Positions 17,930-45,510 of a DNA stretch of 64,000 nucleotides are shown here, in pieces; position 1 is the first letter of the stretch, and every line of letters begins with the position of its first letter. Origin of the DNA: an uncultured Clostridiaceae bacterium (GTDB lineage: Bacteria > Bacillota > Clostridia > TANB77 > CAG-508); NCBI GenBank assembly GCA_947647275.1, contig CANSJQ010000002.1, positions 5,795-69,794 of the forward strand, given 5' to 3'. The position numbers and the translations under genes are program-made. Below the pieces are notes generated by a model. The model was not told the origin of the DNA and did no database searches. It saw nothing but the letters and a program-made list of their open reading frames with translations.

Positions 17930-18004
17930 TGGCTGGGCTGGCTAGATTCGAACTAGCGCATGCCAGAGTCAAAGTCTGGTGCCTTACCGCTTGGCTACAG
18001 CCCA
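17930..18004 (-). tRNA. tRNA-Gln (anticodon UUG)
   Basis: Revcomp folds as a cloverleaf: acceptor TGGGCTG/CAGCCCA, D stem GCC/GGC, anticodon stem CCAGA/TCTGG with loop CTTTGAC, T stem GCTAG/CTAGC with loop TTCGAAT; encoded CCA. A 3' hairpin plus U-run follows at 17888-17927. Confidence 0.85.
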
Positions 18005-18055
18005 ATGTTTTATTATTATGATCAAAAATAATCATATTATTCTTTTTAAAATAAA

Positions 18056-18133
18056 TGGGGTGGAATATGGGACTCGAACCCATGGTCTCCAGTGCCACAA
18101 ACTGGCGCGTTAACCAACTACGCTAAATCCACC
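18056..18133 (-). tRNA. tRNA-His (anticodon GUG) with extra 5' G-1
   Basis: Revcomp: anticodon stem CCAGT/ACTGG with loop TTGTGGC, T arm ATGGG-TTCGAGT-CCCAT, G-1:C73, encoded CCA. One T-T mismatch in the acceptor stem (possibly my misread). Confidence 0.75.
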
Positions 18134-42025: not shown

Positions 42026-42323
42026 TATTATTACCTCCTAATATTTATATTTGTTTATTGTTTAATAATATGTATATGTTTTTTGTATTATGCATATTTC
42101 TATATCTATTATATTTAATCCCTTTTCTTAATTATAATTTTTTATATAAGTTATTATTTGTATTAATTTACATTTGAATATTTTTTGTTTTTTCTGTTAG
42201 TAGCATAATACTATATTTTAACTTATGTGTTAATTTTTTTTGCTTTTTCTATTTAATTTTTTCTTGCTTTTTGTACATATCTGCACATTTCGACATTTTT
42301 ATTTTTTTTAACCTATTTTTCTA

Positions 42324-42352
42324 TTGACATTATACAATTTTTAGTTTATTAT
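42324..42352 (+). promoter_or_regulatory. candidate sigma-A promoter for the agrA/agrC-like operon (-35 TTGACA, 17 nt, -10 TATTAT)
   Basis: Read directly; lies 80 nt upstream of the ATG at 42432. Confidence 0.35.
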
Positions 42353-42431
42353 TGGAATTAATTGGAAATAATGCCTTATGTTATTGTTTTGCTTGGCATT
42401 TATTTTTTCAATTCACACGGAGGATAAAGAT

Positions 42432-43193
42432 ATGTTAAGTTTTGTATTATGTGATGATAATCAATCTATTTTGGATAGGTTATCTAAAATTTTGGATTCT
42501 ATTTTTTTAGAAAATAATATTTACGCAGAAATAGTATTTACTGCTAATAAACCAGAAGAGCTATTAAATTATATTAAGTCAAATAATGTAGATGTTTTAT
42601 TTTTAGATATTGATTTAAAATCAAATATTTCTGGAATTGACTTAGCTACTAAAATAAGAGAATTTAATAAAGATGTTTATATAATTTTTACAAGTGCTCA
42701 TTTAGAATATATCTTAATTGCCTATAAATGTAAAACTTTTGATTTTATTCCCAAACCCATTTCAAAAGAACGTGTGGAAGAAACAATACTTAGACTTATG
42801 GATGACATAAATAGTGATGGTAATACTACATCTTTTATACGAATTGACAGTAAAAACACAATAATTAATCAAGATAGTATTAACTTTATCAAAAAGGATG
42901 GTATGAAATTAGTCTTTTACACAGACACAAGAATCTATGAAGCTTATAATTCTTTTAATAAAATTTCTAATGAATTACCAAAAAACTTTGTCAGATGTCA
43001 TAAATCATACATTGCTAATGTTAATAAAATTAGTAATATAAACTCCAATAACAATTTAATTATTTTTAATACAAAGAATAATTATAATGAAATTAAATGT
43101 AATATTGGACCAAAATATAAAAATAATTTAATGGAGGTTTTAAAAAATGGAAATTTTTCAGACAATTTGGGCAGATTTAACAACGGAGAATGA
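42432..43193 (+). CDS. LytTR-family response regulator (AgrA-like)
   Basis: Receiver domain (LCDDN..., DVLFLDIDL) plus C-terminal LytTR DNA-binding domain. ATG at 42432 with a GGAGGA RBS; the ORF-track start at 42378 is less likely. Confidence 0.8.
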   Translation: MLSFVLCDDNQSILDRLSKILDSIFLENNIYAEIVFTANKPEELLNYIKSNNVDVLFLDIDLKSNISGIDLATKIREFNKDVYIIFTSAHLEYILIAYKCKTFDFIPKPISKERVEETILRLMDDINSDGNTTSFIRIDSKNTIINQDSINFIKKDGMKLVFYTDTRIYEAYNSFNKISNELPKNFVRCHKSYIANVNKISNINSNNNLIIFNTKNNYNEIKCNIGPKYKNNLMEVLKNGNFSDNLGRFNNGE

Positions 43194-44493
43194 GGTGTTA
43201 ACTACACTCATAGGAATTCCTTTTGTATTTTTGGAAGGTTTTATCTCTATGCTTTTATTTACGACATTACTAAATGTTAAAGCAAATAAAAATCAAAAAA
43301 TATTATATGTTGTTATTGCTTCTATATTTAGTATTTTTAGTAGCATGATACTTTCTAATCCATTTAATACTTTTGCTAATATGGTTGTAGTATTTTTATC
43401 AATACTTCTAATCTTTAAAACTAATATTTTAAAAGCATTTATATGTTTATTTTTTCCAACTATTATTGCTGCTCTTGTTGAAACAGTTATAGGTAATTTA
43501 TATCCTTTAATATTTGGAATTAATTACTGTTCTGCTTTTAATATTCCTTTTCATAGAATTTTTGCAACAAGCACAGTATATTTTATTATGTTTTTGATAT
43601 ATTTATTAGTAAAATACTTAAAGTTGAATATATCTAAACTTCAAATTTTAGATAGAAAAAGGAAAATATTATTAATTTTAAATATTATATTTGGAATCAT
43701 ACTAATATGTATGCAATTATATATAATTACTTTTTATGTTTCTAATTTGCCATTTTTTATCGCAATATTAAGCATTATTAGTCTATTTTTATATTTTTCT
43801 ATAAGCTTATATACAACGTTTACTTCTTCAAAATTAGAAACTACTTATATTAGCTTAGAAGAAGCTCAGTTATATAATAAAACTTTAGAAATACTACAAG
43901 ATAATACAAGAGCATTTAGACACGACTTTACTAATATATTGTTAGGCATGACTGGATATATGGATAATAATGACATGGAAGGTTTAAAGAAATATCATAG
44001 TCAATTACTTGATGATATTAAACAAGTTAATAACTTAACAACTCTTAGCCCTACATTAGTTAATAATCCAGCAATATATAATATACTTGCTTCAAAATAT
44101 CATAAAGCTGATAATTTAGGTATTAAAATTAATTTAGAAGTATTTTTAGATTTAAATGATTTACATATGAAAATTTATGAATTTACTAGAATATTAGGTA
44201 TACTTATGGATAATGCTATTGAAGCAACCTCTGAGTGTGAAGATAAAATAATTAATGTATCTATTAGAAAAAATAACAGAAAACATATGCAATTATTGCA
44301 AATAGAAAATACATATAAGGATAAAGAAATTGATACTGAAAAGATCTACGAAAAAGGTTATTCTACAAAGAAAGGAAATACTGGACTTGGATTATGGGAG
44401 GTAAGGCAAATTTTAAAGAAAAATAACAATTTAAATTTGTATACTTCTAAAGATGAAACATATTTTTCTCAACAATTAGAAATATATTATTAA
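43147..44493 (+). CDS. AgrC-like sensor histidine kinase (6-7 TM + HATPase_c, HPK10 type)
   Basis: Polytopic N-terminus, FRHDFTNIL H-box, G-box GLGLW; GGAGG RBS. Confidence 0.75.
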   Translation: MEIFQTIWADLTTENEVLTTLIGIPFVFLEGFISMLLFTTLLNVKANKNQKILYVVIASIFSIFSSMILSNPFNTFANMVVVFLSILLIFKTNILKAFICLFFPTIIAALVETVIGNLYPLIFGINYCSAFNIPFHRIFATSTVYFIMFLIYLLVKYLKLNISKLQILDRKRKILLILNIIFGIILICMQLYIITFYVSNLPFFIAILSIISLFLYFSISLYTTFTSSKLETTYISLEEAQLYNKTLEILQDNTRAFRHDFTNILLGMTGYMDNNDMEGLKKYHSQLLDDIKQVNNLTTLSPTLVNNPAIYNILASKYHKADNLGIKINLEVFLDLNDLHMKIYEFTRILGILMDNAIEATSECEDKIINVSIRKNNRKHMQLLQIENTYKDKEIDTEKIYEKGYSTKKGNTGLGLWEVRQILKKNNNLNLYTSKDETYFSQQLEIYY

Positions 44494-44540
44494 AAAATTA
44501 AACAAGATAGACTATGCTATCTTGTTTTTATTTTTACTTT
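44494..44540. terminator. bidirectional terminator (aacaagatag-actatg-ctatcttgtt flanked by A/T runs) between convergent agrC-like and agrD
   Basis: Perfect 10-bp stem. Confidence 0.6.
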
Positions 44541-44544
44541 ACTA

Positions 44545-44664
44545 TTAATCTTTTTTTATTAAAGATGCAGGCATTTTTGGTTGATGCATTACACCAAATA
44601 TCCAACAAGCTGTGTTTGTAGATTTAGCATATTTCTCTGCTATTTTTGCTAATAATTTTATCAT
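44545..44664 (-). CDS. agrD: AgrD-type autoinducing-peptide precursor (39 aa): MIKLLAKIAEKYAKSTNTACWIFGVMHQPKMPASLIKKD
   Basis: Strong RBS AAGGAGGA. Sits immediately downstream of agrB. Amphipathic leader, single Cys for thiolactone (CWIFGV), clostridial-type HQP recognition tail. Absent from the ORF track. Confidence 0.75.
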   Translation of the reverse strand: MIKLLAKIAEKYAKSTNTACWIFGVMHQPKMPASLIKKD

Positions 44665-44722
44665 AACAATTTCCTCCTTAGTTTAATATATATCAAAGTA
44701 TCGCCGGCCAATACTTTAATTT

Positions 44723-45370
44723 TTATATTGAGCTACTTTCTTGAGCTTTTAAATATTCTTGATATCCATATTTATTTTTTGTTAATTTGTATGCTACGCT
44801 TGTAATAGAAATACTTTGTATTGCTGTCCCAAATATTAATAAATTTGCAATTATTTTATTTGGTATAAATATTGCTCCTAACATATTTATACTTAAAAAA
44901 ACATATGATAATATCTTTTTTACTCTTCTTTCCTTTTTTGTTAATATTGGTAAATTTTCTGTATCTGCTGGTGCATATATACTTACTAATATTATTCCAA
45001 TTATCCAAATAGATATAATAGTAATTATCTTCACCAAGTCATTTTGGAATGTGTACATTGTACTTAATATCGCATTTCCACAATAAACAATATTTGTACA
45101 AATAAAACATCCCAAATGTGTTTTTAAATGAAAGCCTCCACTACACACTTTGTATGGTAGTATTAGAAAAAATGCAAATATTGTTTGCCACCATAAACCT
45201 AGTATAAGTCCAATAGAAAACATTAAAAATATTTTAGGTACTTCACCTATTATCAGCTGCATTCCATACATTATCACTTCTGCTCTTTCATCATCTATTT
45301 CTGGCATGCTTTTTCTTATCTTATTTGTTAAATACTCACAAAATTTATCTATCATGTATTCACATCTCAT
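44723..45370 (-). CDS. agrB: AgrB (AIP-processing membrane peptidase)
   Basis: 215 aa, polytopic; catalytic region ...ILPYKVCSGGFHLKTHLGCFICT... matches the AgrB His/Cys motif. Confidence 0.8.
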   Translation of the reverse strand: MRCEYMIDKFCEYLTNKIRKSMPEIDDERAEVIMYGMQLIIGEVPKIFLMFSIGLILGLWWQTIFAFFLILPYKVCSGGFHLKTHLGCFICTNIVYCGNAILSTMYTFQNDLVKIITIISIWIIGIILVSIYAPADTENLPILTKKERRVKKILSYVFLSINMLGAIFIPNKIIANLLIFGTAIQSISITSVAYKLTKNKYGYQEYLKAQESSSI

Positions 45371-45510
45371 TTCTATTAACTTTCTGCTATAATAATATCT
45401 TGTTTTTATTAATATTTATATTTTTATTTATGATAAACCTAAAAACATATATGAAAATATAAAAATATATTTTCATATATGTTTTTTATAGTTTTATAAA
45501 ATATACATAA

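Follow-up and report, generated by a model that had tools for sequence, protein, structure and literature searches.

The window, a stretch of 64,000 nucleotides from an uncultured Clostridiaceae bacterium, carries a real and complete agr-type peptide signalling locus of an uncultured lineage of gut Clostridia. Its four genes lie in two convergent groups, agrA-agrC and agrB-agrD. Judging from the sequence, the locus is likely to encode a functional, chromosomally fixed quorum-sensing system in which the two operons share one bidirectional terminator and the signal has a seven-residue ring. The window allele (core WIFGVM) belongs to a highly polymorphic family of pherotypes, whose AgrD core and AgrC sensor, and no other parts, diversify together. 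Taken alone, the locus is unremarkable: agr systems occur widely among Clostridia, the type of system is already known, and standard models detect the window copy. What stands out is the predicted ring geometry and the pherotype diversity.

Genes and genomic context of the agr locus

An earlier, sequence-only reading of this DNA had proposed a full agr-type locus with a genuine AgrD, and all four open reading frames were indeed located and matched to their families. On the plus strand, agrA (42432-43193) encodes a protein of 253 amino acids with a REC and a LytTR domain (Pfam Response_reg, E 6e-17; LytTR, E 6e-16). Its LytTR part matches the AgrA structures solved for S. aureus (3bs1 and 4xqq; E about 5e-6), and its ribosome-binding site, ACGGAGGA, is kept across the aligned orthologues. 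The agrC gene (43147-44493, plus strand) overlaps the 3' end of agrA by 47 nt, as it does in relatives, and encodes a polytopic sensor histidine kinase of 448 amino acids (HATPase_c_5, E 8.5e-18) with about seven hydrophobic segments in residues 20-221. The top NCBIfam matches of the two proteins are AgrA (72.6 bits; equivalog cutoff 400) and staphylococcal AgrC (E 8e-35 over residues 34-443; 120.8 bits; equivalog cutoff 500). Scores so far below the staphylococcal equivalog cutoffs are expected for distant orthologues. The closest solved relative of AgrC is the kinase module of S. aureus AgrC (6e52, E 2.7e-21), with which its H-box aligns as RAFRHDFTNIL versus RKFRHDYVNIL. The kinase is thus AgrC-like and does not belong to a non-peptide-sensing family, which the earlier reading had named as a way in which it could fail.

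On the minus strand, agrB (44723-45355) encodes a membrane peptidase/cyclase (PF04647, E 4e-38). Its identity had been called correctly, but the start first assigned to it, at 45370, is probably five codons too long: orthologues and public gene calls begin with MIDKF or VIDKF, which in the window gives a protein of 210 amino acids starting with MIDKF at 45355. None of 71 distinct orthologues departs from the GG-H76 motif or from C83. In S. aureus AgrB, the catalytic His/Cys pair is H77/C84, seven residues apart, as Qiu and colleagues are said to have found in 2005. No solved structure for AgrB was found by sequence search. The fourth gene, agrD (44545-44664, minus strand), lies directly downstream of agrB and encodes a 39-residue precursor of an autoinducing peptide (AIP).

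About 100 related loci, among them that of Clostridium sp. CAG:508, have this convergent layout at one and the same place in the chromosome; most of them come from metagenomes of the human gut. Their flanks are constant, with SAM-MTase and RluA genes on one side of agr and deacetylase, yabP and yqfD genes on the other. Contigs of this lineage reach about 1.28 Mb. The layout had been called non-canonical, and it is convergent rather than agrBDCA; it is nevertheless no surprise, as both the gene order and the split operons have clostridial precedents. The gene order of C. difficile agr2 is agrA-agrC-agrD-agrB, clostridia that carry agrBD and agrCA as two operons are already known, and a kinase gene convergent on agrBD also occurs in one distant Clostridiales MAG.

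The AgrD precursor

AgrD (MIKLLAKIAEKYAKSTNTACWIFGVMHQPKMPASLIKKD) has an amphipathic leader (residues 1-19), a single cysteine (Cys20) as the nucleophile, the core WIFGVM (residues 21-26) and a conserved, charged and proline-containing follower, HQPKMPASLIKKD; the cysteine and core are encoded at 44587-44607 on the minus strand. The ribosome-binding site noticed earlier, AAGGAGGA, is present at 44672-44679 (minus strand), 7 nt upstream of the start, and all orthologues have a strong purine-rich one. The gene was described as unannotated, which does not hold. The peptide scores above the cutoff of the AgrD model that NCBI itself uses (TIGR04223, quorum_AgrD; 31.4 bits, cutoff 19), public gene callers do predict it, and the exact peptide is present in NCBI, ENA and Logan. 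Its cluster-mates carry the name "cyclic lactone autoinducer peptide", and the neighbouring genes of close relatives are named AgrB, AgrC and AgrA.

All of the related loci examined have a 39-codon agrD between agrB and agrC, with an almost invariant leader and tail, and the gene is kept wherever agrB is kept. This conservation shows that it is no chance open reading frame. Homologues were searched for with the 39 amino acids plus one added C-terminal Lys as the query. Among 133 close relatives, which have 109 distinct cores, exactly six residues separate the cysteine from HQP in every case. The entropies of these six positions are 1.6, 2.1, 2.0, 0.13, 2.1 and 2.8 bits, the fourth being Gly in 131 of the 133 sequences, and most positions of the leader and tail lie at 0-0.4 bits. 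Within a species, nucleotide changes in agrD are concentrated in the core codons. More distant family members have five or six residues, and Ser instead of Cys, flanked by leader and follower anchors that are unchanged. As had been supposed, the core is unlike those of known families, in that no characterised AIP matched it. A literature search with the peptide motifs returned only unrelated neuroscience papers, though the family may still appear in the supplementary tables of the closest papers, and a search combining CAG-508 with quorum sensing returned no paper.

Size of the predicted ring

The ring was first read as CWIFG or CWIFGV. A Cys-based ring on this AgrD still stands; its size has to be revised, since six rather than four residues separate the cysteine from HQP. 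A spacing of four residues between nucleophile and follower is the canonical feature of five-residue rings in staphylococci, C. perfringens, C. difficile and Listeria. Spacing and variability together favour a seven-residue macrocycle, so that the ring is probably CWIFGVM and less likely either of the shorter forms. Five of the six core positions are hypervariable, including both of those beside HQP, and a boundary between ring and HQP like that of C. difficile AgrD1 would yield CWIFGVM. For that peptide (...ANSTCPWIIHQPK), the predicted AIP is ANST[CPWII], and this boundary was likewise taken from the literature as a prediction. The AIP rings described so far have 5, 6 or 9 residues; a ring of seven is not among the characterised AIPs described in the literature surveyed.

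The near-invariant Gly at core position 4 would suit a fixed processing site or a ring C-terminus, and AgrB might cut after it to give the five-residue thiolactone CWIFG, residues 25 and 26 leaving with the follower. Five-residue rings are also by far the commonest among AIPs. This is nonetheless an unlikely outcome, as it would place the two residues after the Gly in a discarded segment, which should not diversify with the receptor. Positions 5 and 6 are among the most variable of the whole peptide, and they differ between pherotypes of one species whose AgrB proteins are 98.5-100% identical. Moreover, the known C-terminal ring residues in the literature table are bulky hydrophobics and not Gly, the Gly is altogether absent from family members with the five-residue spacing, and an internal Phe-Gly also occurs in the nine-residue ring of GBAP.

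Six-residue rings have been confirmed experimentally in Clostridia, namely in C. acetobutylicum, and a corresponding CWIFGV ring would require Met26 to be removed with the follower. Such a product appears highly improbable: rings of the C. acetobutylicum and C. difficile types are annotated in the literature as ending directly at the conserved follower, and core position 6, the most variable residue, adjoins the invariant HQP. The seven-residue CWIFGVM remains the preferred reading.

Co-variation of signal and receptor

The core and sensor were compared in relatives from species other than that of the window, using pairs in which all four flanking proteins are at least 98% identical. Where the AgrD core is the same, the AgrC sensors are at least 96.8% identical (31 pairs). 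Where it differs, sensor identity drops to 66-89%, whereas AgrB (96-100%), the kinase module (96-98%) and AgrA (91-99%) stay similar; the lowest AgrA identity within a species, 91.5%, comes from a single pair. The loci L007 and L019, which belong to one species, illustrate this on the nucleotide level: their flanks are about 96-100% identical, and the 5' half of agrC only 72-73%. AgrB thus lies outside the hypervariable region, at 96-100% identity between pherotypes of one species.

Clostridium sp. CAG:508, a prevalent uncultured species of the human gut, has at least five alleles, and the family as a whole more than 100 cores. Other pherotypes, each with its cognate sensor, include WLFGLA, WIFGVL and ILFGLA, and from the mosaic L073 sensor it is predicted that sensor residues 14-70 read core position 1. 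The polymorphism is that of classic agr specificity groups, except that AgrB is constant. The co-variation of core and sensor implies ongoing selection on signalling.

Predicted transcription signals and the state of the locus

Upstream of agrA, a promoter-like element (42324-42352, plus strand) consists of TTGACA and TATTAT separated by 17 nt and matches 11 of 12 consensus positions; its TTGACA is invariant in all seven aligned orthologues. About 34 bp upstream of this -35 hexamer, the conserved motif TCGACATTTT (42290-42299, plus strand) is a candidate half-site for a regulator, possibly a LytTR protein. It reads TCGACA(T/G)TTT in six of the seven aligned orthologous regions and TCGACAGTTTAA in the other. 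The motif is not enriched within the window, and no partner repeat was found upstream of agrA at a distance of 21-22 bp, as is usual for AgrA sites. Repeat finding, a motif search and upstream alignments likewise gave no clean LytTR direct-repeat pair upstream of agrB or agrA. Autoinduction therefore lacks sequence support and is proposed here only as something the system may do.

The convergent agrAC and agrBD transcripts have a predicted bidirectional intrinsic terminator in common (44500-44527, both strands), with an 11-bp stem and T runs on both sides. The RNA folds at -12.3 kcal/mol on the plus strand (z -6.4) and at -11.6 kcal/mol on the minus strand (z -4.6). A second, conserved stem-loop (44692-44720, minus strand) follows the agrB stop codon and precedes the agrD ribosome-binding site; it has 12 bp and a GCCGG loop and folds at -11.6 kcal/mol (z -3.9). 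Its conservation was assessed by folding each sequence and tallying the stems. A hairpin is predicted there in nearly all of 48 distinct orthologous agrB-agrD spacers (median 12.5 bp, weakest 5 bp), and the orthologues have many different upper stems, each of them complementary. The spacer was also considered as the site of an internal agrD promoter, and it contains no hexamer pair at acceptable spacing.

Promoters without LytTR repeats would fit a decaying or silent remnant, or a spurious 39-residue reading frame, from which no signal is produced. Such a state is extremely improbable. The four reading frames are intact and have strong ribosome-binding sites, and the catalytic His and Cys as well as the H-box are conserved. 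The small reading frame is kept in about 100 loci with a near-invariant leader and tail and scores above the cutoff of the AgrD model, and the co-variation of core and sensor implies that selection still acts on signalling.

Proposed mechanism

In the functional system envisaged here, AgrB would recognise AgrD by its amphipathic leader and its follower, both invariant, cut the follower off and join Cys20 to the newly formed C-terminus as a thiolactone. With cleavage directly before HQP, as suggested by the pattern of conservation, the product would be the seven-residue macrocycle CWIFGVM, for which a monoisotopic mass of 836.371 ([M+H]+ 837.379) is calculated. Tail-less rearranged cyclopeptides have been confirmed in Clostridia; if the product is tail-less in the same way, an S-to-N acyl shift would turn it into a homodetic cycloheptapeptide. 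The peptide would be sensed by the AgrC membrane domain, with its approximately seven helices, and AgrC would then phosphorylate the LytTR regulator AgrA, which in turn may alter transcription. Sporulation as the output is a guess, by analogy with other Clostridia and from the sporulation genes next to agr; these, a pdaB-like gene, yabP and yqfD, would be the first AgrA targets to consider.

Comparison with known systems

The S. aureus agrBDCA system (groups I-IV) has the same four components, including the His/Cys pair of AgrB, an AgrC kinase module with an H-box and a LytTR-type AgrA. It also resembles the locus studied here in that the AgrD core and AgrC sensor are hypervariable within the species and the remainder is conserved. 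However, it is transcribed as one agrBDCA mRNA and not as two convergent operons, and it has a divergent RNAIII, of which no counterpart was identified at the window locus. The hypervariable region of S. aureus includes part of agrB along with agrD and the 5' half of agrC, whereas AgrB is excluded here. Its peptides have four residues after the cysteine and fall into four groups, compared with six residues, at least five alleles in one species and more than 100 in the family.

C. acetobutylicum (cyclo-CVLVTL) is closer in being clostridial, in transcribing agrBD and agrCA as separate units and in having a ring of more than five residues. Sporulation and granulose are under the control of its AIP, which has no tail. 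The C. acetobutylicum AgrD follower, of the x-x-P-K-M-P type, resembles that of the window. The differences are that both of its operons run in one direction, with a LanM-like gene after them, and that its ring has six residues, whereas the operons here are convergent, no such gene is present and seven residues are predicted.

C. difficile AgrD1 shares with the window peptide an S/T-rich stretch before the cysteine and an HQPK follower. Unlike in the window locus, four residues separate its Cys from HQP, and agr1 is without agrCA. The C. difficile agr2 locus (agrACDB) likewise places the regulator before the kinase but is thought to form one co-directional transcript. A precedent for rings of more than six residues is the E. 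faecalis fsr system, whose GBAP (QN[SPNIFGQWM]) is also a large macrocycle, of nine residues, with the internal Phe-Gly. It differs in forming a lactone via Ser, in its co-directional locus and in a precursor with no detectable sequence relationship.

Biological significance

An abundant uncultured lineage of the human gut has retained all parts of an agr system at one constant position in its chromosome, and the signal core and receptor sensor diversify rapidly, even within species. The wider proposition is that this lineage makes an AIP ring of the seven-residue type Cys-x-x-x-Gly-x-x, that its pherotypes (more than 100 cores, at least five of them in CAG:508) far outnumber those of any studied agr system, and that a single AgrB processes all the cores; the evidence leaves it about evenly balanced. 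If true, nothing but the AgrD core and the AgrC sensor would determine specificity, and the family would be a natural library for the rules of ring size and specificity. It would also imply strain-level kin discrimination in a gut commensal with a small genome. Chemical confirmation of the ring would widen the known structural range of AIPs, and the many natural AIP/AgrC pairs served by one AgrB, if confirmed, would lend themselves to studies of receptor specificity and of strain-level interference in the gut.

The agr locus and its genes

The window (G+C content 28.1%) carries an agr locus that is complete and whose AgrD is genuine. This is what the sequence-only reading had proposed, and its four ORFs are all present and borne out by domain and family matches. 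On the plus strand, agrA (42432-43193) encodes a 253-aa protein with receiver and LytTR domains, the top NCBIfam match of which is AgrA. It overlaps agrC (43147-44493, plus strand; 448 aa) by 47 nt, an overlap that is kept in relatives. AgrC has a HATPase_c_5 GHKL domain and, within its first ~220 residues, about seven hydrophobic segments. From end to end it aligns with the NCBIfam model for staphylococcal AgrC (E 8e-35, under the equivalog cutoff). Among solved structures, the S. aureus AgrC kinase module is matched by the cytoplasmic half (E 2.7e-21), and RAFRHDFTNIL, the phospho-acceptor box, lines up with RKFRHDYVNIL of S. aureus AgrC.

On the minus strand, the 39-codon agrD (44545-44664) scores 31.4 bits on NCBIfam TIGR04223, the AgrD family (cutoff 19), and is preceded at a distance of 7 nt by the ribosome-binding site AAGGAGGA (44672-44679). 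The ORF at 44723-45370 (minus strand) is indeed agrB (PF04647, E 4e-38), but its proposed start at 45370 is probably five codons too early: orthologues and public gene calls begin at MIDKF (45355), giving 210 aa.

AgrD had also been described as unannotated, whereas the exact 39-aa peptide is already in public collections (NCBI, ENA, Logan). Its 90%-identity cluster comprises 256 sequences, one of which, found on at least 1000 contigs, bears the name "cyclic lactone autoinducer peptide". In the commonest relative, Clostridium sp. CAG:508, the neighbouring genes are named AgrB, AgrC, and AgrA by the sources. In the literature searched, there was no match to the peptide and no paper linking CAG-508 with quorum sensing. 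The system is thus annotated, yet apparently unstudied.

Gene order and relation to known systems

The gene order is constant: SAM-methyltransferase, RluA-type pseudouridine synthase, agrB and agrD, the oppositely oriented agrC and agrA, polysaccharide deacetylase, yabP, and yqfD. Pfam assignments of the flanking genes in the window are consistent with it. The nearest two species representatives in GTDB (AgrB 83% and 74% identical) have the same order, as do 18 loci retrieved via AgrD variants and 80 metagenome loci, many labelled human gut. The locus is thus no mobile insertion but an old feature, fixed in the chromosome of this uncultured, spore-forming, low-G+C lineage. In one related lineage, gene calls split the RluA-type gene into two ORFs that overlap (133/108 aa and 130 aa; locus L021, 3350-4109, and locus L022, 3296-3980), which suggests a frameshifted pseudogene.

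The convergent arrangement differs from agrBDCA of S. aureus. It had been presented as remarkable, but clostridial precedents make it no large surprise: in clostridia, agrBD is often an operon apart from agrCA, and C. difficile agr2, with the order A-C-D-B, is a precedent for the regulator-kinase order. A distant Clostridiales MAG (L004, 5001-6982; AgrB ~20% identical) carries agrB, an AgrD-like ORF, and a convergent GHKL kinase, so the layout recurs outside this AgrD family. The AgrD-like ORF reads ...PCFLFFGEPDF..., ends ...PCFLFFGEPDFNEIADLYTKTER, and has a 5-residue ring spacing.

The AgrD precursor and its predicted ring

The single Cys and the HQP motif are separated by six residues, the core, in all 133 close relatives, among which 109 distinct cores occur. 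Entropy at core positions 1-6 is 1.6, 2.1, 2.0, 0.13 (Gly, almost invariant), 2.1, and 2.8 bits, against 0-0.4 bits at most positions of the leader and tail. Only 54 clusters at E<=0.001 came out of an exhaustive phmmer search over 1.84 billion representatives, so the sequence family is narrow. Distant members share the leader and the HQPKMP follower, with five or six residues between and, in some, Ser for Cys (one or other deviation occurs among P0206, P0212, P0215, P0220, P0226, and P0240). Ring chemistry and size therefore vary within one leader/follower family, the Ser-bearing members being predicted to form lactones.

The sequence-only reading placed the ring at CWIFG or CWIFGV, a size of five or six residues that the comparison does not support. 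In C. difficile AgrD1 (...ANSTCPWIIHQPK), the ring is placed in the literature as [CPWII], ending directly before HQP. The same boundary here would give the 7-residue macrocycle CWIFGVM. The two residues adjoining HQP are the most variable of AgrD and differ between pherotypes (signal/receptor variants) sharing virtually identical AgrB, which is hard to square with their being discarded, as a CWIFG ring requires. Provided that the system works, the precursor sequence makes a 7-residue ring the probable one. In C. acetobutylicum, a 6-residue ring without a tail has been confirmed. So far, the AIPs examined from clostridia have no N-terminal tail and undergo rearrangement to homodetic cyclopeptides; by analogy, the same would be expected here.

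Pherotype polymorphism

Two CAG:508 loci with the cores WLFGLA and WIFGVL share mostly 96-100% nucleotide identity over 10 kb, except for the indel-containing deacetylase-yabP spacer and the 5' half of agrC (72-73%). Pairs of loci were compared where all four flanking proteins were at least 98% identical. AgrC sensor domains are at least 96.8% identical in same-core pairs (31 pairs) and 66-89% identical in different-core pairs of the CAG:508 and L022/L042/L045 clusters, in which AgrB (96-100%), the kinase module (96-98%), and AgrA (91-99%) are conserved. A further pair, L015/L054, is lower (AgrB 90.3%, kinase 89.8%). Variable AgrC sites span residues ~14-200, ending at the kinase module, and agrD nucleotide differences within species are concentrated in the six core codons. 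The CAG:508 species cluster holds at least five coexisting alleles; polymorphism in the window's own species is extrapolated from these relatives.

This is the specificity-group pattern known from staphylococci, with two differences. AgrB lies outside the variable region. In addition, since the two operons converge, the variable stretches, the core of agrD and the 5' half of agrC, have the conserved kinase-coding half between them.

The AgrC sensor of locus L073 (core ILFGLA) is a mosaic when residues 1-215 are compared with those of L056 and L007: it follows the IIFGLV allele over residues ~14-70 and the WLFGLA allele over ~71-200. The core is chimeric in parallel, with I from one parent and LFGLA from the other, which suggests that core position 1 is recognised by the first transmembrane pair, or loop, of AgrC.

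Terminators, hairpins, and promoters

Between agrC and agrD, which converge, lies a predicted bidirectional terminator (44500-44527), a hairpin of 11 bp that has T runs on both strands. A perfect 21-bp A+T-only inverted repeat (45441-45486; -21.9 kcal/mol, z -8.4) separates the RluA-type gene from agrB and probably terminates the former, the pseudouridine synthase gene. Lacking G-C pairs, this repeat was missed by a consensus terminator scan. Only ~85 nt then remain for an agrB promoter.

A 12-bp stem-loop (44692-44720, minus strand) directly follows the agrB stop codon, before the agrD ribosome-binding site, and its loop (GCCGG) is GC-rich for a genome of 28% G+C. Nearly all of the 48 distinct orthologous spacers from L001-L102, the loci compared, have a predicted hairpin at the same place (median 12.5 bp, weakest 5 bp). 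Many different, exactly complementary upper stems occur, such as AGTATT/AATACT, ACATTG/CAATGT, AGCGTC/GATGCT, and TGCCA/TGGCA. No U-tract follows the stem-loop, so it does not look like a terminator; it may act in mRNA processing or stability and thereby set the agrB:agrD ratio.

The putative agrA promoter (42324-42352, 5' of agrA) is near-consensus (TTGACA, 17 nt, TATTAT). Its -35 element and a TCGACA(T/G)TTT motif farther upstream are conserved across species. Just 3' of the -10 element, a direct repeat (ATTGGAA, 3 nt, ATTGGAA; 42351-42367), partly kept in orthologous loci as TTGGAA...T(T/A)GG, may serve as an operator or belong to the 5' UTR as an element of it. Searches of both upstream regions found no paired LytTR-type direct repeats at the agrA or agrB promoter, so positive feedback is assumed by analogy only. 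Two adjacent tRNA genes (17933-18132, minus strand) are the only Rfam matches at gathering threshold in the 64-kb window, which yielded no riboswitch or rRNA.

Biological meaning

Sporulation is a reasonable first guess for the agr output, by analogy, since sporulation genes adjoin the locus and agr has a role in sporulation of other Clostridia. The locus is of an already known kind. Two points deserve follow-up: the prediction of a 7-residue ring, and the very high diversity of pherotypes in a gut lineage that is prevalent and uncultured.
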